Source: Escherichia coli
GTDB lineage: Bacteria; Pseudomonadota; Gammaproteobacteria; Enterobacterales; Enterobacteriaceae
Assembly: GCF_024502345.1 (NCBI RefSeq)
Contig: NZ_JALDNN010000001.1
DNA length: 64,000 nt
Direction: 5' to 3' (one strand)
In this document: piece by piece, positions 23,203-52,703 of the stretch
How positions within the stretch are numbered: the stretch's first letter is position 1
Layout of the letters: the number at the start of each line of letters is the position of its first letter
Made by a program: the position numbers and the translations under genes
Notes under the pieces: generated by a model
The model's input: only the letters and a program-made list of their open reading frames with translations
The model's database searches: none
Told to the model about the DNA's origin: nothing

Positions 23203-23616
23203 GTTGCTGGTTCTTTTACTTTGAGAGATTTTAATTGATGGGTATTGTTTCTACGACAATAAAGTTTTGACAAAGAAGCAAATAAAATGCATATCTTTCG
23301 ATTGTCACACATTGGAATATCGACAGAGCATTGATGATATTACGCAAAATATATTGCAGCCAAGTGAACTGACATTACGATCGAACACAAATGCAACATG
23401 ATGGATACTACCATTACATGTCGAGCTTGATTTTCCGTTTATTTCACGATTATCTCTTGATATTAACAGCTACGGACTTTTAAACAGATAAATCTCCCCG
23501 TACATCACCACAATATTATCCTTCGAAGTCCCGCAAAGCTCCGAAATATTTCGCGTCATTGGCCCTGAAAGCAATATCAAGACAGTGGGCAAAATAGCTT
23601 TCCTGACTGAGTTCAC

Positions 23617-23845
23617 TGTGGGATGCAAATAAAGTTTCATCCTAACCCTAAAAACAGAGAGAAACGTCGCGCGCTCTCCTATTCATAAAAAATCCCTTTT
23701 ATATCAGTATGTTGTGAGCACTTACACCCGAGACTGGATCGTTTTGCCTTTCATGGGAGAATGATTAAGGGCGCTAAAGTATCATCCTAATTTTCGCCCA
23801 GGCTCGAAAAATACGGTAAATGGTGAAAATAAAGATTCATCCTTT
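23617..23845. repeat. Tn7-like left end with three spaced TnsB-binding-type repeats
   Basis: ATAAAGTTTCATCC (about 23626), TAAAGTATCATCC (about 23776), ATAAAGATTCATCC (about 23829). Confidence 0.7.
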
Positions 23846-24138
23846 TCCGATGTTGCCCGTTCCAACACGTAAGCAGTCAGTCAGAAAAAACACATAGATC
23901 CAATCCCTAGCGAGCATTGAGCTCTCTCATCCGTGCCAACTGCTCCAACCCTTGGACGCCCTAAATGCTTACCCAAAAAAATCAACACCTTCTTTTAAAA
24001 ACACAATCAAAAATGACACCCTTATATCCATTTAACCTAAACAGCCTTCCCCCCACTGCACTAGCTAGGGCTCGTAGTTCGGCGCAAGGCTGAAGTCGCT
24101 TGGCTGCTTCGCTGTGCAGATCCATGACCCACTTTCCA

Positions 24139-25302
24139 TCAAACTCCCGGTTGTAGTTCCACAAGCATCTCGCGAGTCTTGCCGGCCCGCTCCACTAACA
24201 AGACCACAACATCTCCAACGTTCTTGTCGTCTAGCCGGGCCTGTAATGTGGTGACGTCGTCGACGGCGATACCGTCGATGCTGATAACGCGATCGCCGGG
24301 CACGATGCCGCCTGCGGTGACCTCGACGCCGACGAGCCCGGCCCTGTGCGCCGCCGAGCCCGGCGTCACGCGCAATACGAATACGCCCTTACTGCCGGTC
24401 AGCGCCTGCAGACGCGCGTTGAGCTGCTCATCCACCTCGATGCCCAGCGCCGGACGGATGTACTTGCCGGTCTTTATGAGTTGCGGCACCACGCGCATGA
24501 CGGTATCGACCGGCACCGCAAAGCCGATGCCGGCCGAGGCGCCAGACGGACTGTAGATGGCGGTATTGATGCCGATCAGCCGCCCAGCCGAATCGAGCAG
24601 CGGGCCACCGGAATTGCCGGGGTTGATAGCGGCGTCGGTCTGGATCAGGTGGTCAATGGCCGGGCCACTGGCGTCGCCGGAAAGGGTGCGGTCAAGCGCC
24701 GAGACGATGCCGGTGGTGAGCGTCCAGTCGAGCCCGAAGGGATTGCCAATGGCAAAGACCTTTTGCCCCACCTTGAGATCGGCACTGGTGCCCACCGGCA
24801 CCGCCGGCGGGCGCTTGAAGCCGACGCCAATCTTGAGTACCGCGATGTCGTGCGCAGGACTAGCGCCAACGAGCGCAGCCTGATAATCGCGACCGTCGGC
24901 CAGTTTGACCGTGGCAGACGATGCCCCCTGGATCACGTGGAAGTTGGTCACCACGTGGCCGGCATCGTCCCAGATGAAGCCGGAGCCGGTGCCGCGCGGC
25001 ACGGAAAAGACATTGCGCGACCAGACGTGACGCACTAGTTGTGCCGTGGTGATGTAAACCACCGACCCGCGCGATTTCTCGAACAGCTCGATGGTGGTTT
25101 TTTCGTCGGCGGCCAGGTCGCCGCGCGGCGTCACCGTGCGCTCCTGCGTTTCGTGGGGACTGAACCAGGCTTCGATGGCGGGCAGGAACTGCCACAGCAG
25201 CATGAGTGCGGCGATGCAGCCAGTGATGACGAGCCAGCGCCGGATGAAGCGGTCCGGCGCCGGGCGGCTGTAGGGGTCGGGGTAGGTCACGTCATTCTCC
25301 AT
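24139..25302 (-). CDS. degP: DegP/HtrA-family periplasmic serine protease
   Basis: 387-aa ORF with trypsin-like catalytic motif GNSGGPLLD and a C-terminal PDZ-like region. Confidence 0.85.
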   Translation of the reverse strand: MENDVTYPDPYSRPAPDRFIRRWLVITGCIAALMLLWQFLPAIEAWFSPHETQERTVTPRGDLAADEKTTIELFEKSRGSVVYITTAQLVRHVWSRNVFSVPRGTGSGFIWDDAGHVVTNFHVIQGASSATVKLADGRDYQAALVGASPAHDIAVLKIGVGFKRPPAVPVGTSADLKVGQKVFAIGNPFGLDWTLTTGIVSALDRTLSGDASGPAIDHLIQTDAAINPGNSGGPLLDSAGRLIGINTAIYSPSGASAGIGFAVPVDTVMRVVPQLIKTGKYIRPALGIEVDEQLNARLQALTGSKGVFVLRVTPGSAAHRAGLVGVEVTAGGIVPGDRVISIDGIAVDDVTTLQARLDDKNVGDVVVLLVERAGKTREMLVELQPGV

Positions 25303-25309
25303 GTTGAAA

Positions 25310-26299
25310 TCAGCGCCAAAGGCCGCCGGTGCGCCAGCGTGGCGGACGTGGTGATACGGTCACCTCGGGGACGAAACGGGCCGATGGAAACGGCGGCATC
25401 GCGGGCGGCGGAGCAAGTTCCAGCAAGCGCTCAATGCGTTCAGCCGTCGCCGGATGCGTGCGCAACCAGGAGGGTTCCGGATTGCCCCATCCGGGCAGCA
25501 GCCAGGCGCGCCAGGAGCGGCTCACCCGCTCGATCTTGGCGAGCGCCGAGGCCAGCCCGTGCGGGTCGCCGGTCAATTCGGCAGCGAGCCGGTCGGCGTC
25601 GAATTCGCGCACCCTGGACAAGCCCAACTGAGCCAGCAAGGCCAGCTGTGGCGCGACCGCCAGTAGAAGCAACGCGGGCCAATTGACTTCCGCGACTCCA
25701 AGCAGCAGCGCTGGCAAGCTGAGCACGATCGCAAGCTGCCCCAGCAGGGCCAGCAGATGGGTCAGCCGGCTGATGGAATCGGCCAGGCCCATGACACGCA
25801 AATCCTCGTTCGCAATATGCGCGATTTCGTGGCCGAGCACGCCGGTCAACTCGCGGGGCGTGAGGCTACGCAGCAGGCCGTCGGTCAGCGCGATGGCCGC
25901 GTGATGCTTCGAACCGGTGGCGAAGGCGTTGACGACCCCGCTGGGCACGTAGTGCGGTACCGGCACGGCAGGCAGCCCGGCCCGCGCCGCCAGTTCGCGC
26001 AACACAGCCCAAAGATCGGGCGCTTCATCCGGGTACAGGGGGCGTGCGCCATACAGCCGCAAGGTCAGTCCGGAGGCGGCCGCCGGTTCGAGCAGCAGGG
26101 TGAACCCCGCGGCCGCAAGCGCCAGCCACAGCCCGCCGTCACCCAACAGCAGGCTGCCAGCGACGGCGGCAATCCCGAGCAGGGTCAGCACCAACAGCGC
26201 GGTTTGCAGGCGATTGAGCCAGCGATGCCGCGCGCCGACATCCTGCGCGTGGCGCAGATCACGACTGATCATCTGAGCGTTCCCCGGCGGTCCGGTCAT
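25310..26299 (-). CDS. M48-family zinc metalloprotease (HtpX-like)
   Basis: HEXXH motif in LGHEIAHIANEDL; hydrophobic N-terminal segments. Confidence 0.8.
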   Translation of the reverse strand: MTGPPGNAQMISRDLRHAQDVGARHRWLNRLQTALLVLTLLGIAAVAGSLLLGDGGLWLALAAAGFTLLLEPAAASGLTLRLYGARPLYPDEAPDLWAVLRELAARAGLPAVPVPHYVPSGVVNAFATGSKHHAAIALTDGLLRSLTPRELTGVLGHEIAHIANEDLRVMGLADSISRLTHLLALLGQLAIVLSLPALLLGVAEVNWPALLLLAVAPQLALLAQLGLSRVREFDADRLAAELTGDPHGLASALAKIERVSRSWRAWLLPGWGNPEPSWLRTHPATAERIERLLELAPPPAMPPFPSARFVPEVTVSPRPPRWRTGGLWR

Positions 26300-26762
26300 C
26301 GCGCTCGCGCAGCAGCCAGTAAGTCACCCCGAGCGCCAGCGTAGCACCTGCGAGCGCGGCGATCTTGCCGGGGCTCGCCTCGGGGTCGAGGATCACGAAC
26401 TTGCGCGCCAGCGCGATCAGGCCGATGAGGATCACCGTCTTGACCTGGATGATGCTGTCCCGACGCAGCGCCACGCGCACGATGGAATGCTTGAATTCCA
26501 TGGCGATGAGCAGCGTCATGATCATGGCGAACACGGTCTGGAAGACCTTGTGATCAAGCGGATTGAACGCGTCGAGGATCAGCAGCGTGAAGACAATGGA
26601 CATGAGCTGGAGCAGCGACACCACGATGATCACGGCGATCACCGCAGACAGCACGAGCGCGATGACCTGCTCGAAGCGCTCGTAGAACGTCATCACGGCC
26701 CATTGGGCGCGAAAAGTTTTCGTCAGCGTAGGTTGCTTTTCATTCATCGCCATTTCCCTCAA
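26259..26762 (-). CDS. psiE: PsiE-family inner-membrane protein (phosphate-starvation-inducible)
   Basis: 167-aa multi-pass membrane ORF with a PsiE-like hydrophobic pattern. Confidence 0.75.
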   Translation of the reverse strand: MREMAMNEKQPTLTKTFRAQWAVMTFYERFEQVIALVLSAVIAVIIVVSLLQLMSIVFTLLILDAFNPLDHKVFQTVFAMIMTLLIAMEFKHSIVRVALRRDSIIQVKTVILIGLIALARKFVILDPEASPGKIAALAGATLALGVTYWLLRERDDRTAGERSDDQS

Positions 26763-27610
26763 TTTACATTGGCAACCATAACTTGGTTGCGCCCTTGTCT
26801 TTTTGCCTGGTAGAGCGCGCTGTCCGCCTGCTGCATCACCTGCTCGGAAGAGTTTAAGCGGACGTCGAGGGGAGCCACCCCCATGCTGGCGCTATAGCTG
26901 ATCGACACCTCTCCACACACCAGCGCTGTCGCCGCAACGTCCTGACGAAATCGCTCCGCCCATACTTGGGCGTCTTCTATCGATGCCGCTTCCAACAACA
27001 CAGCGAATTCCTCCCCCCCCCCAATCCGTGCAGCCATGTCGGTTGCGCGAACATGTTCCCTCAACCGTGAAGCAAAGTGCTTGAGCACCTCATCGCCGCA
27101 TCCGTGCCCATAGGTATCATTGATGCGCTTGAAGTGATCGATATCGCAGAGCACAAGTGCTGCTTGTATCTCCGGGCTGCGTTTGAGGCGCGCCCATTCC
27201 AGCTGTAATCGTTCGTTAAAAGCCCGCCGGTTCGACAAGCCGGTCAAGGGGTCGGTGATCGCCATGCGCAGCAACCGCTGCTCCATTTCCTTGCGAGAAG
27301 AGATGTCGAGCAGAGTGCCCACCATCAATTGCCTGCCCGTGTCACCCAGCCAACGACCGCGATCCAGCACCCAAATCCAAACGCCGGATCGATGACGAAC
27401 GCGGTACTCGCACTCCAATCGCTCCGACGGATTTTCTTGGTAAGCGCGCACCTTTGCCAGAACGACCGGTAAATCCTCCGGATGAATACGCGCTTGCCAT
27501 GCGGCATGGGTGGCGCCAATCTCCTCGTCGGAGGTCAAGCCGAACATCGCCAGACTGCGGGCAGAAAGCCTGAAGCTGTCGGTGGCAAGATCCCACTCCC
27601 AGAATCCCAA
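26759..27610 (-). CDS. PAS-GGDEF protein, putative diguanylate cyclase
   Basis: 283-aa ORF with GGDEF-domain signatures (RIGGGEEF active-site motif, DHFKRIND) after an N-terminal PAS-like region. Confidence 0.75.
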   Translation of the reverse strand: MGFWEWDLATDSFRLSARSLAMFGLTSDEEIGATHAAWQARIHPEDLPVVLAKVRAYQENPSERLECEYRVRHRSGVWIWVLDRGRWLGDTGRQLMVGTLLDISSRKEMEQRLLRMAITDPLTGLSNRRAFNERLQLEWARLKRSPEIQAALVLCDIDHFKRINDTYGHGCGDEVLKHFASRLREHVRATDMAARIGGGEEFAVLLEAASIEDAQVWAERFRQDVAATALVCGEVSISYSASMGVAPLDVRLNSSEQVMQQADSALYQAKRQGRNQVMVANVN

Positions 27611-27779
27611 CTCTGCGCCTTCCAGGGCGATGGCGATCCGTTCGTTGTCGTCGATTTTCGCTTGTTGGCGATGCTTCAGCTCGTCACGCCTGTGGCGATT
27701 GGTACGAGCAAAACGCCATAACGCAACCCCATGCCAACATTGGCAAGTAGCGACACCATCAGCCAGATGGTCGGCCCGT

Positions 27780-29498
27780 TCATGGTCTATCCCCGCCTGA
27801 CTGACTGAGTGCCTGCCGTAATTCCTCGATCCGGTGGTCGACTTGGTCGGCGTTGATGCCCAACATCAACAGTACCTGCTCGGCCAGTCCCAGTCCCGCA
27901 GCCAGGTACAACGGGTACAGTCTGACATTGGGCAGATTACGCAAAAGCTGGGCATCCGTTACGCGCTCAGTGGCCACCACCACGGACAAGCTCAGGCGGC
28001 GGTCGAGAACCGCCTGAGCGATACGCAGGGCCGTCTGCGGACGGGCAAACGTCAGCACCACCAGGCGGGCATGGGCCAATCCGGCGGCGGCCAGGGTGTC
28101 GAGCCGACTGGCATCGCCATACGACACCGGCGCCCCCATAGCACGCCCCGCTTCGACCCGTTGGCGGTCCGATTCCAGCAGCAAATGCGGTATGCCTGCC
28201 AGGCGCAGCGTTCGGCTCAGCAGCAGCCCGACGTCATCCGCCCCACAGATGATCACATGGTCGCGCAACGACCGCGCCCGCTCGGCGACTTCGCCTTCTT
28301 CGGCCTGCGGTGGCTGACCGAGTGCGCCCGAGCGGCTGAAAGCCCGCGCCCATCGGTCATGGTGTCGGATCAGGAGCGGTGCCAACCCCATGCTCAACAC
28401 CAGCGCCACCAGCATCGGTTGCACCATGGTGGCGGCGATCAGGTGCTGCTGCATGACCATGCCCAGGAGCAGCAGCGCAAACTCGCCGCCATGACCCAGC
28501 ACGATGCCTGCGCGCCAGGCGTCGAGCGCCGACAGGCGGGTTGCGCGCAGCGCCAGAAAGTTCAGCCCCATCTTGAGAGGCACCAAGGCCAACAGCCAAC
28601 CCAGTACCGCCAGCGGTGCGGCCACGATCTGCGCGGTGTCCAGCTGCAGGCCAATGGTCACGAAGAACAGGCCCGACAGCACATCACGAAAGGGCTTGAG
28701 GTGGCTTTCCATGTGGTGCCGGAAGTCGCTCTCGCCCAGGACCATGCCGGCGAGAAAGGCCCCCAGGGCGGCGGATACGCCGACGGCGTGTGCAGCAGCG
28801 GCTGCCGCCACGACCACGCACAAGGAGACCAGCACGAAGGATTCTTCGTGGCCCTGCCGCGCCACCCAGCCCAGCAGGCCATGCAACAGACGACGCGAGG
28901 CAACCGCCGCTGCCGCGAACAACACCAGCACGCCCAACACTTCGAGCAGCACGCTCTCGATCTTCGGCGAGTCGCCGCGCGCCCAGATCGCCAGCAGGGC
29001 CAGCAGGGGCACGCTGGCCAGGTCCTGAAAGACCAGCACGGCGATGGCACTGCGGCCGTGGCGGGTGGTGAGCTCGCCTTGGTCGGCCAGCTGTCGGCTG
29101 ACCAGCGCCGTGGACGACATGGCCGCTGCGGCGCCGAGCAGTGCAGCGCTCTGAGCTGGCTGACCCAACCCGATCAGCACCAGGGTCAGTGGCGCGGCCA
29201 CGACGACCATCTGCAAGCTGCCGGACGCCAGTACGGTCTTGCGAGTGAGCCAGAAGTGCCCCAGCGAGAATTCCAGTCCGACCATGAACAGCAGCAGGGC
29301 CACACCCAGTTCGGATATGAAAGTCAACGCCTCTCCCGGCGCGATCACACCGCTGACCGAGGGGCCCAGCAAGGCGCCGACGGCGAGGTAACCCAGCAAG
29401 GCGGGTACTCTGAACGCCGCCGTCGCCACCACCGAGAGGCTGCACGCCGCCAGCAGGATCAGGGTAGTGCCGAGCAAATCCTGCGGATTCCACGCCAT
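27780..29498 (-). CDS. kefB: KefB-like cation/proton antiporter with C-terminal TrkA-N domain; first five codons derive from the IS21-family end
   Basis: 572-aa ORF with multiple TM helices and a Rossmann-like VIICGADDVG; start ATGGCGTGGAATCCGCAG lies inside the IS terminal repeat plus target duplication. Confidence 0.8.
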   Translation of the reverse strand: MAWNPQDLLGTTLILLAACSLSVVATAAFRVPALLGYLAVGALLGPSVSGVIAPGEALTFISELGVALLLFMVGLEFSLGHFWLTRKTVLASGSLQMVVVAAPLTLVLIGLGQPAQSAALLGAAAAMSSTALVSRQLADQGELTTRHGRSAIAVLVFQDLASVPLLALLAIWARGDSPKIESVLLEVLGVLVLFAAAAVASRRLLHGLLGWVARQGHEESFVLVSLCVVVAAAAAAHAVGVSAALGAFLAGMVLGESDFRHHMESHLKPFRDVLSGLFFVTIGLQLDTAQIVAAPLAVLGWLLALVPLKMGLNFLALRATRLSALDAWRAGIVLGHGGEFALLLLGMVMQQHLIAATMVQPMLVALVLSMGLAPLLIRHHDRWARAFSRSGALGQPPQAEEGEVAERARSLRDHVIICGADDVGLLLSRTLRLAGIPHLLLESDRQRVEAGRAMGAPVSYGDASRLDTLAAAGLAHARLVVLTFARPQTALRIAQAVLDRRLSLSVVVATERVTDAQLLRNLPNVRLYPLYLAAGLGLAEQVLLMLGINADQVDHRIEELRQALSQSGGDRP

Positions 29499-29586
29499 TC
29501 GGACACTCAGCCCACGCTGATCCGGACACCTGTTCCACGGCCATTCGGACAGGCAGTCGGAGCGCAGCGACGCAGGGGTTGCATTG

Positions 29587-30342
29587 TTAGTCTGAGGTGC
29601 CCGGTGTCGTCAATTTCTTCACCCGCTTTCTCATCGATTCGCCCTTGAGGTTGATCCGATAAGCGTTGTGCACCAGGCGGTCGAGGATGGCATCGGCCAG
29701 GGTTGGATCGCCGATCAGTTCGTGCCAGTTGTCCACGGGCATTTGGCTGGTCACGAGGGTCGAGCGCTGGCCGTAGCGGTCGTCCAGTAGCTCCAGCATG
29801 TCGCGGCGCTGTTCGGCGGTGAACGGCGCCAGGCCCCAGTCGTCGAGGATCAGCAGGTCGGTCTTGGCGTAGCTGCTCATCAGCTTGGCGAAGCGCCCGT
29901 CGCCGTGGGCTAGGCCCAACTCTTCCAACAGGCGCGGCAAGCGCAGGTAACGCACGCTGTAGCCCTCTCGGCAGGCCTGGTGTGCCAGGGCGCAGGCCAG
30001 CCAGGTTTTACCCACGCCAGTCGGACCGTTGATGATCAGGTTGAGTCCGTCGCGCAGCCACTGGCCGCTACCCAGTTGCAGGATCAAGCCCTTGTCCAGC
30101 CCGCGCGGGGCACGGTAGTCGATGTCTTCGAGGCAGGCGCTGTGCTTGAGCCGGGCCTGGCGCAGGCGGCTGCTGAGGCGCTTGTCGTCGCGTTCGGTCA
30201 GTTCGCGGTCGACCAGCAGGCCGAGGCGTTCCACGAAGCTCAAGCTGTCGATGTCCGGGGTTTTCAGTTGCTCGGCGAGTGCCTTGAGCATGCCGGTCAG
30301 GCGCAGGGTCTGGAGCTTGTCCAGGGTCGGATGGGGCAGCAT
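29587..30342 (-). CDS. istB: IS21-family helper ATPase IstB
   Basis: Start MLPHPTLDKLQTLRL... (cat at 30340-30342); Walker [12 protein letters not shown]. Confidence 0.85.
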   Translation of the reverse strand: MLPHPTLDKLQTLRLTGMLKALAEQLKTPDIDSLSFVERLGLLVDRELTERDDKRLSSRLRQARLKHSACLEDIDYRAPRGLDKGLILQLGSGQWLRDGLNLIINGPTGVGKTWLACALAHQACREGYSVRYLRLPRLLEELGLAHGDGRFAKLMSSYAKTDLLILDDWGLAPFTAEQRRDMLELLDDRYGQRSTLVTSQMPVDNWHELIGDPTLADAILDRLVHNAYRINLKGESMRKRVKKLTTPGTSD

Positions 30343-30359
30343 GGTGGGATTCCTTGTGT

Positions 30360-31874
30360 TTAGTGGTAGTAGCCGGGGCCGCGCAGGTTGGCGTGGTCGT
30401 CCGGCAGCAGGGGCAGGTGCTGCTGGGCCAGCGGCAGATTTTCCAGCCCCTGGCGCAGGATCGATTCGAGGCTCTTGTAGCTGCACGCACCGAGGCTGAG
30501 GGCGCGACGGCAGGCCAACTCCAAGCACACTTCGCCATGGGTCTTGCCCAGGCGCAGGATGCCCAGGCAGGCCCGGTAGCCTTGGGTTGGGTGGATGCGC
30601 CGTTCGAGGATGTGGCTGATCACGCCGGCCGTGTTCGGCCCGGTCTGCTCAGCCCAGCGGATCAGCCGTTGTGGCGTCCACTCGGCGTGCTCGCGATGGC
30701 TCTTGGGCATGTGCTCGGCCTGTGTGCTGTGCCGGCCCTTGTGCGGTGAGCGAAGGTGGCTGGCCACCCGCTGATTGGCGTGGAAGCACTCCACCGTGCG
30801 CGCTGTCAGGCGTACTTCCAGTTGTTTCTTCACCAGTTGGTACGGCACCGAGTAGTAGTGCCCATCGACCTCGACGTGGTAGTCGATGTGCACCCGCGCC
30901 TTCTTCCACTCGGCATAGACGTAGGGCTGCTCCGGCAGTGGGCGCAGCGCTGGACGATCCAGGGCTTCGAAGGCCGAGTGCCGGGAGCCCGGCAGCTTGC
31001 GAAACGGTCGTCGGTTGAGCCGCTCCAGCAATAAGGCGATGGCGCTGTTGAGTTCGTCCAGGGAGAAGAACTGGCGGTTCCTCAGCGCGGCGAGGATCCA
31101 GCGCTCGACCACCTGCACGCCGACCTCGGCCTTAGCCTTGTCGCGCGGCTTACGCGCCCGCGCCGGCACCACCGCCACGCCATAGTGCTCGGCCAGATCG
31201 CGGTAGCTCGGGTTGATGTCCGGCTCGTAGCGATGGCTCTTACTCACCGCGCTTCGCAGGTTGTCCGGCACCACGATCTCCGGCACACCGCCGAGAAAGG
31301 AGAAGCAGCGGGCATGTGAGCCCAGCCAGTCAGGTAACTGCTGCGACCAGGTGGCTTCGGCGAAGGTGTAGCTGGATGCACCAAGCACCGCGACGAACAC
31401 CTGCGCCTGGCGGATCTCGCCGCTGTGGCGGTCGATCACCGGCACCGTCTGCCCGGCGTAGTCGACGAACAACTTCTCGCCAACGCGATGTTCCTGGCGC
31501 ATCACCACGTCCAGCTTGCCCTGCCAGGCTCGGTAGTGCTCGCAGAACCAGCTGTACTGAAAGCCTTTCGGCTGGCTCAGGCGATACTCCTGCCAGAGCA
31601 GCGCCAAGGTCACGCCCGGCCGGCGTAGCTCGGCGTGGATCATGGCCCAATCGGGCAGCGGTCGTTGCTCGGAGGGTACCGCCGCCGGTGGCGGGAACAG
31701 CTGCTGCTCCAACTCCGCATCGGACAACGAACAGGGCCAACTGAGGCCGCTGGCGGCAAAGCGACAGAGGTAATCACCGGCACTGCTGTGGCCTATGCCC
31801 AGACTGCGGGAGATCTTACGGACAGACAGCCCGCAATCGAACTTGAGGCGCAACACCTCACGGATTTTACGCAT
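30360..31874 (-). CDS. istA: IS21-family transposase IstA
   Basis: Start MRKIREVLRLKFDCGLSVRKISRSLG... (cat at 31872-31874); HTH then DDE region; the track ORF extends upstream into trx. Confidence 0.85.
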   Translation of the reverse strand: MRKIREVLRLKFDCGLSVRKISRSLGIGHSSAGDYLCRFAASGLSWPCSLSDAELEQQLFPPPAAVPSEQRPLPDWAMIHAELRRPGVTLALLWQEYRLSQPKGFQYSWFCEHYRAWQGKLDVVMRQEHRVGEKLFVDYAGQTVPVIDRHSGEIRQAQVFVAVLGASSYTFAEATWSQQLPDWLGSHARCFSFLGGVPEIVVPDNLRSAVSKSHRYEPDINPSYRDLAEHYGVAVVPARARKPRDKAKAEVGVQVVERWILAALRNRQFFSLDELNSAIALLLERLNRRPFRKLPGSRHSAFEALDRPALRPLPEQPYVYAEWKKARVHIDYHVEVDGHYYSVPYQLVKKQLEVRLTARTVECFHANQRVASHLRSPHKGRHSTQAEHMPKSHREHAEWTPQRLIRWAEQTGPNTAGVISHILERRIHPTQGYRACLGILRLGKTHGEVCLELACRRALSLGACSYKSLESILRQGLENLPLAQQHLPLLPDDHANLRGPGYYH

Positions 31875-32046
31875 GGACAAACGCTCCACGACGACCTCTC
31901 TGCTTCGAAAAAGAGGTCGATGGTAGTGAATAAATCCTGCGTAGCTGCCTGCCTGGAAAGTGTCCGGATGGCCGTGGAATCGGTGTCCGGATGCTCGTGG
32001 AATAAGTGTCCGGATCAGCGTGGAATCCGCACAAATCCTGCATCGG

Positions 32047-32487
32047 TCAGCGTCCCACCTGTGCAGAGGCCCAGCGCACGATGTCCTGCGAGCCCATGGC
32101 GCCTGCCTGGCGGGCGATCTCACGTCCGCCCTGGAACAGGGCGAGCGTCGGAATGCTGCGGATACCGAACTGCGCGGCCAGGTGGGGCTCAGCCTCGGTG
32201 TTCACCTTTGCCAGCCTGATCCCGGGTTCGAGCTGGCGCGCGGCTTGTTGAAACTGCGGCGCCATCATCTTGCACGGCCCGCACCAGGGCGCCCAGAAAT
32301 CGACCAGCAGCGGCAGATCGCTGCGCTCCACGTGGCGCGAGAACGTCGCCGTCGTCAACTCGATGGGCTCGCCGGTGAACAAGGGCTGCTGGCAGCGGCC
32401 GCAGTTGGAACGATCCGCGAGCTTGGCGGCCGGCACGCTGTTGATGGACTGGCAATGTGGGCAGACGATGTGGAGTTCATTTTTCAT
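32047..32487 (-). CDS. Thioredoxin with N-terminal zinc-finger extension (Trx2-like)
   Basis: 146-aa ORF with CPHC...CGRC N-terminal cysteines and active site WAPWCGPCK. Confidence 0.85.
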   Translation of the reverse strand: MKNELHIVCPHCQSINSVPAAKLADRSNCGRCQQPLFTGEPIELTTATFSRHVERSDLPLLVDFWAPWCGPCKMMAPQFQQAARQLEPGIRLAKVNTEAEPHLAAQFGIRSIPTLALFQGGREIARQAGAMGSQDIVRWASAQVGR

Positions 32488-33628: not shown

Positions 33629-33720
33629 GTCCTTTAGGGTTGTCCGCCCAGGTGAGTGGACCCGGGTGATTGGATATGTTGATTTTCAAAGATGATCTTA
33701 CGGTTTGGTTTTTCACGCCC

Positions 33721-34332: not shown

Positions 34333-34417
34333 GCGATATCTCCTTGATGGATCATGAGATCAGGAAAATCAAGCCTTCATCGCGAAGAGAGGGGCTATTC
34401 GCCCCTCTCTTGCGGTT

Positions 34418-35305: not shown

Positions 35306-35407
35306 GGTGATATGCCTCGTATGAGATAGTGAAAATAGGGGAATCTATTGGGGCCGACTGCGAATATCGCGAGACTGACCGATGGAGCAGTCGGCCCCTT
35401 CATCACC

Positions 35408-38231: not shown

Positions 38232-38240
38232 GTCGTGCCG

Positions 38241-42543: not shown

Positions 42544-42634
42544 GCTCCTTGAGAGGACTGATTTGACGAGGCGCCGAAGGTCACGGCGCCTCGCCATTCA
42601 CTTGGTTTTTCTGTAGAGAACAAGCCGATCGGCG

Positions 42635-43204
42635 TCAGCCGTTGATCGGGATCGAGCGGCCCTGCTTGGGCGCACTGGCCTCGCGCTTTTCCATTGTGAT
42701 CGTGAGTACGCCGTTCTTGAAAGCGGCCTTGATCGTGTCCTGGTTGGCATCGGTCGGCAGGTTCAGAGCGCGCTGAAAGCTGCCGTAGGAGCGCTCCACC
42801 CGGTGGAAACCGCCGTCTTTGCTTTCCTGCTCCTGACGCTTTTCACCGCGAACCAGCAGCACGTCGTTGTCGAGCGTGATATGGATGTCTTTTTCCTCGA
42901 CGCCGGGAACCTCCAAAGAAATCTTGTACTGCTTGTCGGTCTCCTGGATGTCCAGCGCCGGCTTCAGCAGGCCCGGCCAGTCCGACGGCCAGCGTGGCAT
43001 GGCCAGCGCCGGAAAGCCGAAGCCTCGAAACGTGTCGTCGAAGAGGCGGTCGATCTCGCGGTGCAATTGCAGGATGGGACTGACGGGCCCACCCGCTACC
43101 GGCAGGTCATTGCGCTGCACCGGCAGCGAGGCAGTGCTCTGTTGTTCTTCCTGCTCCTTCTTGAACCAGTTCCAGGGAGCCAACTTCTTGAAATCAATGT
43201 CCAT
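42635..43204 (-). CDS. Small heat shock protein (Hsp20 family)
   Basis: Start MDIDFKKLAPWNWF... (cat at 43202-43204) after GGAGGTG; alpha-crystallin domain. Confidence 0.85.
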   Translation of the reverse strand: MDIDFKKLAPWNWFKKEQEEQQSTASLPVQRNDLPVAGGPVSPILQLHREIDRLFDDTFRGFGFPALAMPRWPSDWPGLLKPALDIQETDKQYKISLEVPGVEEKDIHITLDNDVLLVRGEKRQEQESKDGGFHRVERSYGSFQRALNLPTDANQDTIKAAFKNGVLTITMEKREASAPKQGRSIPING

Positions 43205-43239
43205 GTCACACCTCCAGAACAAAAATTGAAGACTCTCGC

Positions 43240-43521
43240 TCACTCCGTTTGCCTGCGGCTATGGATAGCGCGCCCAGGCAACACGGGATGTTTCGCTGAC
43301 TTCGGCTGCTCATCTGTACGTATCACCTCCTTCTTTCTGCCTGCTTGGATCTGATCATTGATCCATCGATCGATTTCACTTTGACGAAACCGCCACGTCC
43401 CGCCGACCTTGAAGGCCGGAATCTCCCCGTGCGCGGCGAGCCGGTAGAGCGTCCGCTTGCCGACCTTTAAGTAGGTAGCCAACTCGTCGAGTGTGAAGAT
43501 CGCCTGCTGGCGCGCTGTCAT
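43240..43521 (-). CDS. Helix-turn-helix DNA-binding protein (MerR/excisionase-like), first gene of the heat-resistance island
   Basis: Start MTARQQAIFTLDELATYLKVGKRTLYRLAAHGEIPAFKVGGTWRF (cat at 43519-43521); HTH pattern. Confidence 0.65.
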   Translation of the reverse strand: MTARQQAIFTLDELATYLKVGKRTLYRLAAHGEIPAFKVGGTWRFRQSEIDRWINDQIQAGRKKEVIRTDEQPKSAKHPVLPGRAIHSRRQTE

Positions 43522-44026
43522 ACCACCCCCACAAGTTCCGTCGTCACGCGGCCTCGCCTGAGGAAGTTCTTGCAAGACTTTGCAAGATATTGCGCCTAAT
43601 ATGCCAAAAGTCAAGAGTCAACATCCAGCGATCTGCTGGCCGATTGATGTGACTCAAATCTTCAAGGACGGTATGCCAGGGCGGGCCGGTCCGGCGCAGG
43701 GGACGGTGGGTTGATCGGGACCTTGCGGGCGCCGCCCACGGCCGCAGATCAAACACCGATCCTCACGTTGTAACCGAGCGCCCGCAGCCCCTTGCTCGTG
43801 CGCATGTTCCTTGGCGGAAACTCGTCTGGGCGCGCCCAGCCGACGATTTCCCCGAGGCTGCTCAGGCCAATGTGCGGAATTGCCCAGTCGTCGCTGCGGA
43901 TCGCGTTCCAGAGTCGGGCCGAAAAACCTCCGTTGCCCCAGACAACGTAGTTCAACAGTATCCGTCCTGCCAACACACCTTCCCGACACCGCCGCCGAAG
44001 GCCATGGCCCATCAAGCGGATTTTCC

Positions 44027-44659: not shown

Positions 44660-46497
<1,838 letters not shown>

Positions 46498-46505
<8 letters not shown>

Positions 46506-48000
46506 TCCATCTTCCTATCAATCGAATGAACGCAGTGGTCAGTGGTGCCACCCTGCTTTTTTCCAATCCACAACGCTTTTCCAGCTCCCAGCGCCTAGAC
46601 GTTATGCCTGTCTGTACATCCTTCAGCATCGCTGCAGTCAGGCGACGGATCTGATACTCGCCGACGGACTCGGCATAGCGATCCAGGAAGGTGCAGCAAA
46701 GAGGCAATTGATCGAGACGGTGCTCGACTGATGCCCGATGGGGTAGCTGCTGCAGGAACCAGTTGCGACTCCTGCGCGGAAGGCCCAGGTCTTCTTCGCT
46801 ACCTCTACCAATCCGGATCAGCAGGCGCACCAACCTTATGTCACGCGCTCGCCAGTCGATGTGGCTGTTGTTGCCCTGTCGGCGCTGCCTGACCTGGTTC
46901 GCAACCATCAGCCAGTGTCGGTCATGACGATAGAGCCAGGCGTAACATGCCCCTGCTCCGTCTTGCCTGGCTGCCTTGGCTCCACCGTGATTAGCCAGTG
47001 CTTGCAGCCAAATGGCTCGGTACTGCTGCTTTTGCTCAAACTCAGCAGGGAGCAGCTGCACTGACCGCTCGGAGGCAAGGTCGACCTGGCGAGTCTTCGC
47101 CTCGCTGATCAGCTCGCCAGCATGCTGGCCAGGGCGCAGGCTGGTCCAGACGATCAGATGCTGCAGCGCACTGAATCCCTTGCGATGCTTCCTGAACATC
47201 GCCAACAGCCAAGGTGGAGGCTCTCCGGATGTCAGCAGACCGTTCGCAGCAAGCCAATCCCTTTGATGGGATGCCAGGATCTTCTCCCAGATGACTTCAG
47301 CCCTGACCTGCCGGCCTCGCCTGGCGCCGCACTCTGTAGCCAGGTACCGGTACAGGTTGGTCCAGCGTCCGTAGCCAGGCGATTGCACCTCTTCGAGCGC
47401 CAGCAGCTGCATAGCAGCCTTGGCGAGCCTGATAGCCTCTTCGCCCACGGGACTCACGCGAAGATCACGGGGCAGAAACAGTGGAGAGGCTGTATGAAAC
47501 TCGTGCCGCTGCGCTCGACGGAACGGGATAGGTGAGTTCAGGAGCTGACAGCCATGCTCGGGACAGGCATCTATCCCTTGAATCTGCCAGCTGCGCCGCC
47601 AGTAGGGTTCACCGTAGCGCGCAGCCATATCTTCAAAGCAGATCGGGCAGTAACGCAGCCAATCGGGCCACTTGACCAAGGCCGTCGAGGCCCCAGACAG
47701 ACCAATCGTCGGCCGGTCGGGAGCAAGCATGGCCTGAAAAAGATCGGTACGGCGCTCCGGCGGAATGAAAGGGGCATAGAGCGGGAACAGCGTGTGATTC
47801 AGGATCATGCCTTCCGCATCCAAGCCCGTGTTGTTCGCCAACGCAGTCAGGTGTGTGGGCAGATCGGTGATCGCGGCAACCTTGCTGTCACCGAAAAGCA
47901 TGTGCAGCAAGGTCTTGTGGCTGCCTATCCCCAGATGTACCCGGCACCGGGCAATACCGCTGTAAAGCAGTTCGTCCGGGTAGAGCCTGGGGAAGTACAT
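46498..48000 (-). CDS. tnsD: Tn7 TnsD/TniQ-like target-selection protein
   Basis: 500-aa ORF MYFPRLYPDELLYSGIARC...; zinc-finger-like RYCPICF...CPEHGC; FRKHRKGFSALQHLIVW and YAWLYRHDRHWL blocks. Confidence 0.8.
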
Positions 48001-48001: not shown

Positions 48002-49612
48002 TCAGCTCGCTCTCAGCAGAGGCCGTAGATCGAGGATCAAGCCAGCCTGCTTGAATCTGTCATAGGCCTCGCTTTCAGGCCCATCGGCATAACGTCGGCG
48101 CAGATCCTCCTCGGATAGGCACCCCCACTCCGTCCGCTTAACTCTGGAAATGCCGGGCCTCTTGGGAGCGTCCTGCGCGAGGTAGGCCGTGGCCTTGTGA
48201 ATCAGGGCCGCCAGCGGGATGTCCGGATTCTCCGCCAACAATTCATCGGCCATGGGAATGGCGATGTCCCTCGGGATTTCCATACCTTCGAGCAGGGCGG
48301 CCAACCGCTTTGCCTTGTCATCAGCCGGAGGGGCCGGTGGTTTAGGTTGGGGGACGCTATCCAGAGAGCGAGTCAGGGTCAGCAACCGTCCCTCGATCTC
48401 TGGCATCAGCAGGTCGTCATATTTGGCGATCAGCTCGGGCCTACCGCTCCGCAAGGCCGCCAGCATCGGATGGACCGGTTTGAACTCGTCCTCGAAAACC
48501 CTGCGCAGCAACAGCGGCTTAATGCACTCGACACCTGTCACTATCGCCCGGATCTGCGCCAGCGCGAACAGCTTGATGACGATGTCCATGACCCCTTGGG
48601 TGAGGTCGTACATCGTAGCCTCCAGTTCATCATCCAGCGGCGCCGCATTTCGCAGCCACTGATACTTCCAAAGCCGCTTCAACAGACGCTTCCAATGCTC
48701 GTCCCGAGGCAACCTATCCCAGCGGATGCTGCCCAACCCGGAGACCCGCCGAGCAGCCCGGAACGTGCGCTGGAAGAACTTGCTGGCCCGGTGGGTGCCG
48801 ACCTGAATGATCGGAACACCGATGGTGTTCACCAGCGACACGAAGAAATTGTGCATTTTTTCGGCACCACCGGAGCGTGCCTCGTTGAGGTTCTGAACCT
48901 CGTCGATGATCAGCACTCCGAGCGTGTGCAGATTGGCCAGCTGGCACATGGATGCCAGCAGACGTTTGGTACCCAGCTTCTTGCGTCCGTGGCTACGGCT
49001 GTAGTGGGTACCCAGGATCTTGTCTACTTCGTTGAAGAAGCTCAGGCACAGCTCATCCAAGTCACCGTCAATTGGGCAGTCGATCTTCAGGTAGACCAGT
49101 TGGGTGATGTCGTAATCAGGGTGATGGAGAGCTTGGGGGTACATGCCCAGAATCCGCTCCAGCGTGCGCGTCTTGCCGCAACCGGAGCAGCCGAACAGCG
49201 ACAGGCTGTTGGCCGTAGAGGAGACACTCTGGTACACCGCCGCATCCAGATCCTCCTCCTCGACACGGCGATAGCCATTCTGCAGGTGCGCATACCAGGC
49301 ACCGCTGGCCGGATTCCGACCGATGTACCCTTGACGGATCATCAGGCTGATCTTGCTCTCCAGCTCCAAGTGATGGCTCAGCGGCTGGAAGAAGCCGTGC
49401 AACAGGCGGGCAATCGCATGTGCCCTGAGCCGACCATCCAGAAGCGCCTCCTGCGGCTCGAAACCGGGAAGCTGCTGCAATAGATCGACCACCTCCTGCA
49501 GATCAGGAATCGGAGGCAATGCGCTGATGAGCGGATTGTCCTGATACTCGGGAAGCTGCTGCTCCTGGTAACGCGCCAGGGGAATGACTCCGCGCTGGAA
49601 TTCTTCAGTCAT
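48002..49612 (-). CDS. tnsC: Tn7 TnsC-like AAA+ transposition regulator
   Basis: 536-aa ORF with Walker A GCSGCGKT and Walker B LIIDEVQNL. Confidence 0.85.
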   Translation of the reverse strand: MTEEFQRGVIPLARYQEQQLPEYQDNPLISALPPIPDLQEVVDLLQQLPGFEPQEALLDGRLRAHAIARLLHGFFQPLSHHLELESKISLMIRQGYIGRNPASGAWYAHLQNGYRRVEEEDLDAAVYQSVSSTANSLSLFGCSGCGKTRTLERILGMYPQALHHPDYDITQLVYLKIDCPIDGDLDELCLSFFNEVDKILGTHYSRSHGRKKLGTKRLLASMCQLANLHTLGVLIIDEVQNLNEARSGGAEKMHNFFVSLVNTIGVPIIQVGTHRASKFFQRTFRAARRVSGLGSIRWDRLPRDEHWKRLLKRLWKYQWLRNAAPLDDELEATMYDLTQGVMDIVIKLFALAQIRAIVTGVECIKPLLLRRVFEDEFKPVHPMLAALRSGRPELIAKYDDLLMPEIEGRLLTLTRSLDSVPQPKPPAPPADDKAKRLAALLEGMEIPRDIAIPMADELLAENPDIPLAALIHKATAYLAQDAPKRPGISRVKRTEWGCLSEEDLRRRYADGPESEAYDRFKQAGLILDLRPLLRAS

Positions 49613-51692
49613 CCTCTTCCTCCTTGAATATCAGGTCACTGAGATCTGGGAAGGCATAATCTTCCTGCTTCTCGCCCCGCAGTGGGATCACCTCGGCTGG
49701 CTTTTCCTGCTGTGCTTTATCCGGTTTGAATGCTGTTTTCTGGCGTTCCTGGCGCTTTTCCTGCTGCTTGTTCTCGCGGATCTGGGTTCCCAGATCCTTC
49801 GTGGTCATACCCGTTTTGAGCGGACTGGCATCCTCTGCCTGGGCAACGATGGACTCGATCTGCTTCAGAAGATTGCCTCTCTCTACCAAAGCTTCCGCCG
49901 CCGCGTTGGTATCGCTACGCCGTTCCTCTCTGGACAGCAGCCAGACATCCCAGAAGGTCATCCCCCTGAAGCGTCGACTGCGGTCGGCAAGATCGCAAAC
50001 CCAGTAGTCCTTGAGACTATTGGACGGCCGCAGGTAGATGTGGTCGGCGCTACGCGGATCGTATGCGACCGTTACCCCTGTCGGCCGGCGCCCCTGGCCT
50101 CGGTGAAACCAACCCTCCCTGATTGCTTCCTGGCAGGTGTAGAAGCAGCCGAACAGTCTGATTCCCAGCTCCGAAACCGTGGCCGACTCATGGGGCAAGA
50201 GATTTATCCGCACCAGCTCCTCGGGCGCAGTACGTAACCGGCCGGTCAAGTTGGCCAAGCCCCAGTTCCACAGCATGACCGGGATGGCTGGCAGATCGCC
50301 CGGCATACCAGAGGTTCTGTCGTATTTGCTCAAGGTATGAAAGTTGTTGTGGTAGAGGATGCCGGCAATGATGATCTGGGTGAACTCGGGCAAGGTCAGA
50401 CTGGCATCAAGTCTGTAGTCGTGGCCACCCCGCTTCCGGCTGGTGGTGTCCTCGACCACACCGCTGGCATAGGGCTTGAAACGCTCCTGCACCGTCCGGA
50501 AATAACGCTCGACGATCCCCTTGGCATCTCCTCGCCTGGCCGGTGCATTCTCGATGCGAACGCCGAAGGCTTGGGAAAATGCTTCCACCTTGGTGCCATT
50601 CAGTTCGCCCTTATCGGCCAGCACCACATCCGGCAAGCCTTTGACCGGCCAGTCGCTGGCATCGATCTCCACGCTATACTGGCGGCAATACTCAACCTTG
50701 TCGGCGACCGTGTTGGCCAATGCCACCATGGCACTGACCCAGGAAGGTCCCTCGAATCCGACGTACATACCAACGACCATGCGGCTGAACACGTCGATCA
50801 CCATGTAAACGACAGGCCTGCCGACGATAAGGCTGCGATCATGTTCTGAAACCAGATAGATATCGGCGATGGTGGCATCGATCTGGTAGCGGTATCCTGG
50901 CCCCAGTGCCTCGGTCGTCGATGTACTGCTGAGCGGTCGGAAGTCCTTGGCAAAATCCACTGCGGACACCCTGCATGGCAAGGTGTCGGTGAAGTGATAT
51001 TCGCGCCCATAGAAGTAACGGAACTGCCCCAATGTAGGCAGTTCGGAGGTCGGCAGCTCCGTCAGAACAGCACGGAGCAGATTCAGCCCGGCGGCGTAGG
51101 CATCAGGAATGGACGGATGTTTTTCCTTGAGCAAACGTTCCTCGATGACCCGGCGAAAAATGCGCTCGATGTCCGGCGTGACATTGCTCCCTTTCCCCTC
51201 CATCACCACTCTGGGCCTGCCCAGCTTGGCCTGGTTCGGCTTTCTGCGCTTGCCACGGGCGCCCGAGTTGACATAGTCCGGCAAGAGGGCATTCCTGCAC
51301 ATGCCTCGCTGCCAGTAGCGCCTCAGTAACCTATACACCGTCTGATTGGTGACACCATGGCGCTCCATGATGCCTCTGACAATGAGCCCTCTGGGGCGCC
51401 GCACGAAAAGCTGGGGGTTGTGCACAAAATCCGCCAGCATTCCCCAAGCTTCATCACGCTTCTGCTGATCAAGGGAACCTTCCTCAACCTCCCGTAGGAC
51501 TGTTTCCTCGAAGGGATCGGCAATGCTCTCCAGCTCCCGCTCCATGATCAGACGCTCCAGCTCTACAATCGATATCGGTTCGGGCAACGCCGTGTCCGAA
51601 TCGATATCGATCCAGATTGCCTGCTCGGTACCGGACCAAAGCAGGCGCTTTCGCAGTTCCCCCATCCGGAACACCTGATTAACGGGCAACAC
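49605..51692 (-). CDS. tnsB: Tn7 TnsB-like DDE transposase
   Basis: 695-aa ORF with YQIDATIADIYLV, VLADKGE and GIVERYFRT blocks matching the Tn7 TnsB catalytic region. Confidence 0.9.
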   Translation of the reverse strand: MLPVNQVFRMGELRKRLLWSGTEQAIWIDIDSDTALPEPISIVELERLIMERELESIADPFEETVLREVEEGSLDQQKRDEAWGMLADFVHNPQLFVRRPRGLIVRGIMERHGVTNQTVYRLLRRYWQRGMCRNALLPDYVNSGARGKRRKPNQAKLGRPRVVMEGKGSNVTPDIERIFRRVIEERLLKEKHPSIPDAYAAGLNLLRAVLTELPTSELPTLGQFRYFYGREYHFTDTLPCRVSAVDFAKDFRPLSSTSTTEALGPGYRYQIDATIADIYLVSEHDRSLIVGRPVVYMVIDVFSRMVVGMYVGFEGPSWVSAMVALANTVADKVEYCRQYSVEIDASDWPVKGLPDVVLADKGELNGTKVEAFSQAFGVRIENAPARRGDAKGIVERYFRTVQERFKPYASGVVEDTTSRKRGGHDYRLDASLTLPEFTQIIIAGILYHNNFHTLSKYDRTSGMPGDLPAIPVMLWNWGLANLTGRLRTAPEELVRINLLPHESATVSELGIRLFGCFYTCQEAIREGWFHRGQGRRPTGVTVAYDPRSADHIYLRPSNSLKDYWVCDLADRSRRFRGMTFWDVWLLSREERRSDTNAAAEALVERGNLLKQIESIVAQAEDASPLKTGMTTKDLGTQIRENKQQEKRQERQKTAFKPDKAQQEKPAEVIPLRGEKQEDYAFPDLSDLIFKEEEDD

Positions 51693-52506
51693 TGCTCAGC
51701 TCCTGATGCATTTGATGAGAGTTGGCAACCAGGTCTTTCGGCTTCAGCTCCCGGTAAGGAGTGTCAAGATCGAAAAGGAAACAGTGCCGGGCCAGCAACT
51801 GGCGTAGCCAATAGAGCGCCTGACCGGCCTCCAGCTGGCCGGAGGTATCCAGTCCTTGGGCAATAGCGGTCAGCTTCCGGTCTGGGTGACGCTGAAACTC
51901 GAGCAGAAACAGCTGCTGGTAATGGGCGAGATCGTCCTGAGCGATGTCGCCTTCAGCATGGGCAGGATAGAGCCATTGGATATTGGCAAATGCCACCTTG
52001 GATACCTCGCGCTCCGTAACGATGACCCAGGGAATACCTTTTTCCTGCCAGTAGCGCCTTTCAAGCTCAAGCCTCTCGATAACTTCAGGCTTCTGCAGGT
52101 CGGTACTGTACTTGGCCTGAATCGCGATGCTCGGGCGCTGAGGATCTTCGAAATCCACCAGAAAGTCGCTGGTCAGTACCTGCGGGGTACCCTTGTAACA
52201 ACCGTGGGGCAGGCCAAGCTCCTCGGCGATGCGCACCGTATCTTCGACCCGCATCGGAAACTGTTCACGGATATCGGTGACATGGGGAGACCGATCCAAG
52301 GTCAGGAAGATGGCCAGTTCAAGATCGGATAGAAGATGGTGTAAACGCCGGGTCTTGCTGCCAGGCAGGCGGTGGGAGCGACCCAGCGAGGACACGTCCC
52401 TTGTGTAGATGAACGGCTTGTAGTCTGATCCCTGGCCTTGACCACGCCCGTCCTTGAGCCTTCTATCGATCTGGGCCTGGGTCAGCCCCTTGAATGTTCC
52501 AGACAT
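51679..52506 (-). CDS. tnsA: Tn7 TnsA-like endonuclease
   Basis: 275-aa ORF MSGTFKGLTQAQIDRRLKDGRGQGQGSDYKPF...HHLLSDLELAIFL...TSDFLVDF...AIQAKYS; sits just inside the right transposon end. Confidence 0.9.
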   Translation of the reverse strand: MSGTFKGLTQAQIDRRLKDGRGQGQGSDYKPFIYTRDVSSLGRSHRLPGSKTRRLHHLLSDLELAIFLTLDRSPHVTDIREQFPMRVEDTVRIAEELGLPHGCYKGTPQVLTSDFLVDFEDPQRPSIAIQAKYSTDLQKPEVIERLELERRYWQEKGIPWVIVTEREVSKVAFANIQWLYPAHAEGDIAQDDLAHYQQLFLLEFQRHPDRKLTAIAQGLDTSGQLEAGQALYWLRQLLARHCFLFDLDTPYRELKPKDLVANSHQMHQELSSVAR

Positions 52507-52562
52507 GAGAAAGCCTGCCCCCGCTGTGTCGATGACCTCAACATAGCGGATGCAGGCTCAGA

Positions 52563-52626
52563 ATGAAACTTTATTTATACGGATGATACTTTATTTATAC
52601 GGATGAACCTTTATTTGCATCCCACA
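52563..52626. repeat. Tn7-like right end with three contiguous TnsB-binding-type repeats
   Basis: Reverse complement reads TGTGGGATGCAAATAAAGGTTCATCC-GTATAAATAAAGTATCATCC-GTATAAATAAAGTTTCATTC. Confidence 0.75.
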
Positions 52627-52703
52627 CATTTTACTTAAGGCATAAGCGGTAGAGTTGAGTGATAACCCTTCCATAATTTCATTTTCTAACACACTAATTT
52701 AAT

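Follow-up and report, generated by a model that had tools for sequence, protein, structure and literature searches.

How does a Tn7-family transposon come to lie away from glmS, with a different pentanucleotide outside each of its ends? The question is raised by an element carrying the heat-resistance locus tLST/LHR, which occupies positions 23617–52626 (29,010 bp) of a 64,000-nucleotide stretch of an Escherichia coli genome (contig NZ_JALDNN010000001.1, assembly GCF_024502345.1), referred to here in its entirety as the window. It lies in the pepD-fadE-yafV ... aspV-dnaQ region of the chromosome, and the 5 bp outside its ends are TTCAC (23612–23616) on the left and CATTT (52627–52631) on the right, without the 5-bp duplication that marks Tn7 insertions. 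The original prediction, which drew attention to these flanks, held that the element had not entered by the canonical TnsD route, and offered as explanations a rearranged flank, recombination between two copies, or a TnsD with a different target. We find that the element itself is a canonical tnsABCDE transposon of the Tn7 family and not an aberrant one, that its right junction is ancestral, and that its left junction is secondary, falling with nucleotide precision in the tla1 gene of a type VI secretion cluster. Both the element and the secondary change that it has undergone, an ordinary rearrangement, are of known kinds.

Element boundaries and transposition machinery

The termini are unambiguous and, as called in the original prediction, correct. 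They are formed by a perfect 18-bp inverted repeat, TGTGGGATGCAAATAAAG, which occurs in the window only at 23617–23634 (+) and 52609–52626 (−), against a chance expectation of 0.02 matches; allowing up to three mismatches revealed no further occurrence elsewhere in the window, and neither a second copy of the element nor a stray end was found inside it. In seven other sequence contexts of the element the flanks diverge exactly at TGTGGG and CCCACA. Re-assignment of the ends was considered and rejected, since these seven contexts fix the termini and a shift by a few bases yields no duplication. Five 16-bp TnsB-type repeats (0.29 expected by chance) are confined to the two ends, with two spaced repeats on the left and three contiguous ones on the right. 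The ends and transposition genes are as follows:

23617..23842 (+): left (tnsA-distal) end; 18-bp terminal inverted repeat plus TnsB-type repeats at 23627–23642 and 23827–23842; terminus the same in other copies
52561..52626 (−): right (tnsA-proximal) end; terminal inverted repeat and three contiguous TnsB-type repeats, spaced 20 bp apart
51679..52506 (−): tnsA, intact, 275 amino acids; identified by Pfam; Tn7 catalytic residues E63, D114 and K132 kept
49605..51692 (−): tnsB, DDE transposase; Pfam Mu-transpos_C, with TnsB_N and HTH_TnsB matches on an identical product
48002..49612 (−): tnsC, AAA+ regulator; Pfam AAA_22 and TniB, with a Tn7_TnsC_Int match on an identical product
46498..48000 (−): tnsD, glmS-directed target selector with TniQ and TnsD domains (Pfam); matches Tn7 TnsD structure 8glu (E = 1.3e-46)
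44883..46505 (−): tnsE; Pfam TnsE_C (E = 5.5e-44); matches Tn7 TnsE structures 5d16 and 5d17

All five genes are on the minus strand and adjoin the right end, from which they run in the order tnsA-tnsB-tnsC. TnsA aligns over its full length to the Tn7 TnsA structure 1f1z (E = 1.9e-60) and contains the Pfam domains Tn7_TnsA-like_N and Tn7_Tnp_TnsA_C, while the presence of TnsE predicts a second target selector in addition to TnsD. The window copy therefore displays the family's TnsA with its catalytic triad, TnsB, TnsC, a glmS-directed TnsD, TnsE, and TGT...ACA termini with their repeats; what it lacks is the 5-bp target-site duplication. This is present at other copies of the element, and so its loss belongs to the later history of the window copy and not to the element. 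The element is also abundant in public data, the exact TnsB protein being found in 4,398 blocks of an assembly index and the exact TnsD protein in 2,692.

Any two random 5-mers agree only once in 1024, and the mismatch of TTCAC and CATTT is by itself statistically unremarkable. It matters because five other insertion contexts of the element show perfect 5-bp duplications:

G3/10: CCAGT
strain 81: GTTGC
873.10 plasmid: ACGTC
TC24 (glmS site): GGGCT
ABWA45, LR536430.1 and GCA_014103995.1: CATTT

The element thus normally makes 5-bp duplications. The only other copy found without one is in the chromosome of E. coli 2273-PO3 (NZ_CP061749.1), where TGTAC on the left faces GGTGT on the right, indicating that flank changes around the element recur. 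The left flank of that copy is a truncated DUF4942 gene.

Target choice and the original insertion site

glmS is on neither flank of the window copy, as had been noted; the left flank is a remnant of tla1 and the right flank a hypothetical gene of a genomic island. The target of the element's TnsD can be read from other loci. Genomes of 6.2–6.8 Mb contain elements that encode the identical 500-amino-acid protein and have their right end ~25 bp downstream of glmS, in an atpC-glmU-deoR-glmS context. Of eight related loci whose right end could be recognised, from Pantoea, Pseudomonas and others, seven are at glmS; TnsD relatives at glmS in Pantoea and Pseudomonas are 82–99% identical, and GATase and SIS domains confirmed that the neighbouring gene encodes GlmS. 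Among 5,426 complete E. coli genomes, the set used for all complete-genome searches described here, the right end of the element adjoins glmS in six; in strain TC24, the one glmS-site genome that was fetched, the element lies 25 bp after the glmS stop codon and is flanked by the GGGCT duplication. TnsD of this element is accordingly a predicted glmS-targeting protein and the element a predicted canonical user of attTn7. The suggestion that it recognises some other site, of which the present location would be the attachment site, has the absence of glmS from both flanks as the one point in its favour, and we put its probability at practically nil: identical and closely related TnsD proteins reside in glmS-adjacent elements, the TC24 copy lies at glmS, and the copies away from glmS occupy many unrelated sites.

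These other sites include many on plasmids (25 of 85 right-end places in one search, 45 of 205 in another). Since TnsD is directed to glmS, copies elsewhere must have used another pathway, for which TnsE is the obvious and a plausible candidate. For the copy studied here, the exclusion of the TnsD/glmS route made in the original prediction is supported, and its first insertion most likely proceeded by TnsE or an untargeted pathway. The combination of a non-glmS position and a missing duplication signals no new targeting mode, and the case guards against over-interpretation of such features. The first insertion is recorded by the right flank:

52627..52631 (+): CATTT, retained right half of the original 5-bp target-site duplication; CATTT on both sides in ABWA45, LR536430.1, GCA_014103995.1 and others
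52632..62155 (no strand assigned): right arm of a genomic island integrated at aspV; near-identical to ABWA45 apart from four internal deletions
62156..62232 (−): tRNA-Asp gene (aspV), attachment site of the island; 2.6% divergence from ABWA45 directly to its right

From the element outwards this flank comprises the hypothetical gene, remnants of type III restriction-modification genes, a helicase, a GTPase, a CbtA/CbeA module, a DUF4942 gene and tRNA-Asp. The same element with exactly the same right junction is present in three complete genomes (ABWA45, C 236-04A and LR536430.1), at least four other E. coli genomes carry it at the same site of the aspV island with an intact CATTT duplication, and further contigs have the same hypothetical gene beside the tnsA-proximal end, as judged by gene neighbourhood. 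The site, which lies between a yagK/yfjJ-like gene and the hypothetical gene, also exists in an empty state, reading ggaaggcCATTTtactt in strain 210221272. Comparison of the flanks with related genomes, as proposed in the original prediction for reconstructing the pre-insertion sequence, has thus recovered both duplicated copies and empty sites, and shows the right junction to be the product of an ordinary insertion into the island that generated the CATTT duplication.

The island right arm differs from that of ABWA45 by 3 mismatches in ~9.6 kb, whereas the core genome diverges from ABWA45 by 1.3–3.4% on the left (up to 7.9% over 1.4 kb) and by 2.6% directly to the right of aspV. The boundaries of the island in ABWA45 and LR536430.1 are aspV on one side and, next to the integrase, a partial aspV repeat on the other. 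A near-identical island arm within a diverged core indicates that the island moved horizontally as a unit, with the transposon already aboard.

Relative to ABWA45, the right arm in the window has lost 1,373, 2,374, 4,477 and 2,262 bp at positions 53911, 55189, 56304 and 56965, respectively. All four deletions lie within 4.3 kb of the right flank and are associated with microhomologies of 2–5 bp (CTTC, TA, TAC and TACCC). They remove most of the type III restriction-modification, helicase and neighbouring genes and create a fusion open reading frame (ORF) of 446 amino acids (53876–55216); 19 public contigs, from isolates as well as metagenomes, carry exactly this ORF. In E. coli C 236-04A (NZ_CP109924.1), where the CATTT duplication is intact, a copy of the insertion sequence (IS) IS1 is found ~120 bp beyond the left end of the element and is followed directly by yafV, a layout which implies that the island left arm was lost there by a different, IS1-associated route.

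Origin of the left junction

On the left the element abuts the yafV-proximal end of an aspV-linked type VI secretion cluster, of which tle1, tli1 (DUF3304) and the end of tla1 remain:

23517..23616 (−): 3' remnant of tla1 (approximately the last 33 codons; type VI secretion chaperone, DUF4123), its last 5 bp (TTCAC, 23612–23616) abutting the element; coordinates mapped onto the strain A30 annotation

The element starts directly after TTCAC, and ~100 bp separate its first base from the tla1 3' end. More than 80 E. coli genomes have tla1 uninterrupted at this point, GAGTTCAC continuing directly into TGACTGCTTTC, i.e. TTCAC followed by TGACTGC. The window no longer has the remainder of tla1, the secretion cluster, the aspV repeat, the integrase and the island left arm up to yagK and CATTT. 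For comparison, the cluster measures 27.7 kb in strain A30 and the island left arm 7.7 kb in LR536430.1; the DNA lost amounts to about 13–35 kb, depending on how far the cluster had already decayed. The likely precursor arrangement survives in GCA_019583735.1, which shares the window's core lineage (99.94% identity over 9.6 kb) and has an intact tla1 at the TTCAC site, followed by a decayed type VI secretion cluster, IS1, the aspV repeat and an integrase island. This order, with the secretion cluster followed by the integrase side of the island, is common, and in one contig that shows it (L102) the island has the identical 121-amino-acid right-flank protein beside the left arm with no transposon genes between. 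The left junction of the window was found in none of the complete E. coli genomes and is likewise absent from JGI metagenomes, and a junction-spanning ORF of 56 amino acids returned no record when looked up.

The left junction is nevertheless probably real, and assembly collapse unlikely. An independent 100-kb contig in GCA_017173755.1 has the same left junction, extending from fadE across it to at least 10 kb inside the element, and the right flank with its deletions is present in 19 public contigs, several of which continue across the right junction into the element. In a further assembly of the window lineage, GCA_050022275.1, contig JBAOKM010000052.1 (1 mismatch in 11.4 kb) breaks off 77 bp into the right end, which suggests a short-read repeat boundary and another copy of the element in that genome. 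One could imagine that the window genome holds a full copy in tla1 and another in the island, and that the 29-kb repeat was collapsed during assembly with the interval deleted in silico. A repeat of this length is hard to span, and the break in the sister short-read assembly is of the kind expected; against this stand the GCA_017173755.1 contig, the right junction in several independent contigs, and the absence from every public sequence searched (complete E. coli genomes and JGI metagenomes) of the junctions that a second copy should produce. We therefore regard an artefact as very improbable.

The GCA_017173755.1 contig does not have the IS903-type element that lies at 21247–22303 of the window (1,057 bp; terminal repeats GGCTTTGTTGAATAAATC, 9-bp duplication ATCCATTTC) within the type VI secretion effector gene tle1. 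Two assemblies of the same lineage lack this insertion, which makes it the latest event in the region. tle1 also appears to be split into overlapping ORFs at 19539–20702 and 20617–21243, suggesting a frameshift, and has probably been inactivated twice.

Two aspects of the copies at the CATTT site bear on how the left junction arose. One is the state of tnsA: the other CATTT-site copies compared at the sequence level have a +G frameshift at about codon 195 (window position 51923), and at eight further CATTT-site loci the sole tnsA product called is a 93-amino-acid C-terminal fragment. These relatives are frozen at the site with their duplication intact. Intact tnsA at the CATTT site was seen in the window lineage only, which fits a further transposition event in that lineage alone. 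In a subgroup including ABWA45, tnsC and tnsD are moreover fused through a deletion of 1.56 kb.

The other is sequence exchange between copies. Differences from ABWA45 within the element number ~70 to the left of 41 kb and 2 to the right of it, and we asked whether this pattern marks a hybrid of two elements. Single-nucleotide differences were rejected as a test, because the patch at 24652–24802 (~28 changes in 150 bp of the protease gene) is private to the ABWA45 lineage and the cluster at 31970–32014 is a difference in repeat number. The region around clpK, a gene of the heat-resistance cargo (39433–40988), exists as two allele types distributed independently of insertion site, and the window has the type of strain 81; it too was rejected as evidence for a hybrid, since the same patch is found in a CATTT-site copy with an intact duplication. 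ABWA45 carries a second tLST, 86% identical, ~45 kb away. These patterns point to mosaic copies shaped by recurrent gene conversion between co-resident tLST loci, and as mosaicism is also seen in copies with intact duplications it does not discriminate between mechanisms.

The outcome at the left is clear from these comparisons, namely a new joint and loss of the interval; the mechanism we infer. Both junctions are exact at the terminal nucleotide and hence both look transposase-made, by different events. The history that we favour, with a probability of roughly 0.45, is a local hop into tla1 followed by recombination between two copies. The transposon with its heat-resistance locus first inserted at the non-glmS site of the aspV-integrated island, making the CATTT duplication, and the island spread among E. 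coli lineages with the element aboard, coming to sit beside the type VI secretion cluster in the window lineage. There the still-intact element may have hopped a short distance into tla1 in direct orientation, giving a new copy flanked by TTCAC at either end. Homologous recombination of this copy with the old one, whether in a RecA-mediated deletion at some later time or while the break at the donor site was being repaired, would then have removed one copy and the intervening DNA, leaving a single element with one half of each duplication on its sides. In Tn7 biochemistry an intact TnsA predicts cut-and-paste rather than replicative products, and a local hop is favoured because TnsA is intact here and because the window lineage alone has intact tnsA at the site. 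Tn7-like islands with mismatched duplications have similarly been read as having ends from different events, together with a deletion (PMC11014353). Of the explanations offered in the original prediction, a rearranged flank therefore stands, as it was the left flank that changed later, and recombination between two copies is the kind of explanation we favour, as an inferred step.

Several points weigh against this history. No two-copy intermediate was found, and the reciprocal junction (right end, TTCAC, rest of tla1) is absent from both the complete E. coli genomes and the JGI metagenomes; a single surviving copy cannot, in any case, show that two ever co-existed. Target immunity of Tn7 works against the insertion of a further copy when one already resides within tens of kb, and the proposed hop, of only ~13–35 kb, is within that range. 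There is also a 2-bp TG overlap with uninterrupted tla1 at the joint, in a lineage with four microhomology deletions nearby.

Immunity counts equally against a one-step intramolecular event, in which the resident ends would have attacked TTCAC in tla1, replicatively or in a one-ended reaction, with no free second copy. The geometry fits such an event exactly, with one old flank, one new flank, no duplication and the intervening DNA lost, as in the adjacent deletions made by IS26, IS1, Tn3 and Mu; those elements transpose replicatively, whereas a Tn7-family element with an intact TnsA is expected to cut and paste. May and Craig reportedly found, in 1996, that a catalytically dead TnsA switches Tn7 to replicative transposition, and relatives at the site do have a frameshifted tnsA or a truncated tnsA product. 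Moreover the window shares allele 50898T, near tnsA, with the strain 81 subgroup, making a repaired tnsA conceivable. However, replicative adjacent deletion presupposes that no active TnsA-type nuclease is present, and although the product geometry remains compatible, the window encodes an intact TnsA that retains E63, D114 and K132 and predicts cut-and-paste. In addition, parsimony dates the frameshift after the window lineage split off, and what the frameshift at about codon 195 takes away is the C-terminal domain that interacts with TnsC and not the active site, so that it would more likely abolish transposition than make it replicative. We consider a one-step event unlikely on balance, and it is doubtful that the element itself made the deletion in one intramolecular step over ~13–35 kb, perhaps while tnsA was defective, the gene being restored afterwards through gene conversion with another resident copy. 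If true, a one-step deletion would be natural evidence of Tn7-like elements sculpting neighbouring DNA in the manner of IS26 or Mu.

The joint may alternatively owe nothing to a second transposition, arising from a microhomology deletion that happened to end at the terminus, or from a transposase-made break at the left end that was end-joined to resected tla1; TTCAC would then not be half of a target duplication. The TG shared by tla1 (TGACTG) and the terminus (TGTGGG) is in keeping with this, as are the four deletions of 1.4–4.5 kb with 2–5 bp of microhomology that the same lineage has undergone within 4.3 kb of the right flank. We nonetheless find it improbable, given that a random endpoint would fall exactly on the terminal nucleotide about once in several thousand cases, and that Tn7 cleavage is coupled to the assembly of both ends with the target, making a break at the left end alone unusual. 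A pair of independent acquisitions, in which a copy arrived in tla1 from a plasmid or from glmS and the island later brought its own copy to aspV, followed by recombination between the direct repeats, would require two rare events to fall within one ~40-kb interval with matching orientation, and insertion in tla1 is seen in 0 of the 5,426 complete genomes. It does have the merit that island integration bypasses transposon target immunity; many E. coli carry two copies of tLST or the element (on chromosome and plasmid, or both chromosomal), and the GCA_050022275.1 contig stops inside the right end as it would at a repeated end. The strain 81-type clpK segment of the window might be added, but the occurrence of that patch in a CATTT-site copy with an intact duplication deprives it of value as evidence of a hybrid. 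We judge this course of events quite improbable. The preferred reading remains the local hop followed by recombination between copies.

Relation to known elements and the heat-resistance cargo

The element corresponds to the Tn7 prototype in gene order and sizes, in the match of TnsA, TnsD and TnsE to solved proteins, in TGT...ACA termini with repeats that are spaced on the left and contiguous on the right, in its 5-bp duplication, and in insertion ~25 bp downstream of glmS, the right end facing the gene. It differs in its end sequences and in carrying a heat-resistance locus where Tn7 has dfrA1-sat-aadA, and the window copy differs further in its position outside glmS and in the loss of one duplication half. 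The Tn6230 subfamily, carriers of sil-cop or mcr-9, also comprises Tn7-family elements with tnsABCD found on plasmids and chromosomes, but these have the ends TGTCCGAAGACAATAAAGTTGT, a duplication that is always GCTGC, no tnsE, and metal-resistance cargo (PMC13049778); Tn6230 was rejected as the identity of the present element because ends and duplication differ. The use of a 5-bp duplication to tell which ends integrated together follows the logic applied to Tn6022 and AbaR-type Tn7-like islands of Acinetobacter baumannii (PMC11014353), which differ in their attachment site (comM), selector proteins and cargo. In the Acinetobacter cases the nested or tandem elements are still visible in the genome, whereas the window retains a single copy. 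Half-duplications can be used for reconstructing the history of the present element. Such elements are also associated with loss of neighbouring genes, here the type VI secretion cluster and the island integrase, and with the integrase lost the element and island are fixed in place.

The cargo and an insertion within it were identified as follows:

24139..43614 (−): heat-resistance locus tLST/LHR; Pfam on window ORFs and RefSeq annotation of 99.5–99.8% identical copies
29486..32031 (−; approximate): IS21-family insertion (istA/istB) in the cargo, marking a subgroup of copies that includes the window's

The cargo genes encode an S1C (degP-like) protease, HtpX, PsiE, a GGDEF protein, a KefB-like antiporter (kefB-GI), Trx (trx-GI), HdeD (hdeD-GI), YfdX1/2, sHSP20 (sHSP20-GI), a truncated FtsH, a cardiolipin synthase/PLD protein, ClpK (clpK/clpG), Hsp20 and an HTH regulator. 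The core gene set of tLST/LHR is present, and a role in heat resistance is predicted for it. Its GC content of 55–68%, compared with 39–52% in the flanks, is similarly high to that of the tLST/LHR islands of Enterobacteriaceae and Pseudomonas, with which it shares its gene set. Mobile elements including Tn7 have been described on the flanks of the heat-resistance locus, in papers that handle these elements only in passing (PMC8290217; PMC4563881), and our literature search found no paper naming or dissecting this Tn7-family carrier of tLST. The present comparison indicates that a widespread E. coli heat-resistance locus rides on a fully equipped, glmS-competent Tn7-family transposon that is also found on islands and plasmids.

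The IS21-family segment is missing from the copies in strain 81, 2273-PO3 and 873.10, and istA/istB are annotated in those of ABWA45, LR536430.1 and G3/10. Beside one end of it, at 31959–32027, the window contains three copies of a 23-bp unit, AGTGTCCGGATGACCGTGGAATC. Other aligned copies are shorter here by ~46 bp, or two units, and this difference is the source of the false cluster of single-nucleotide differences in the alignments.

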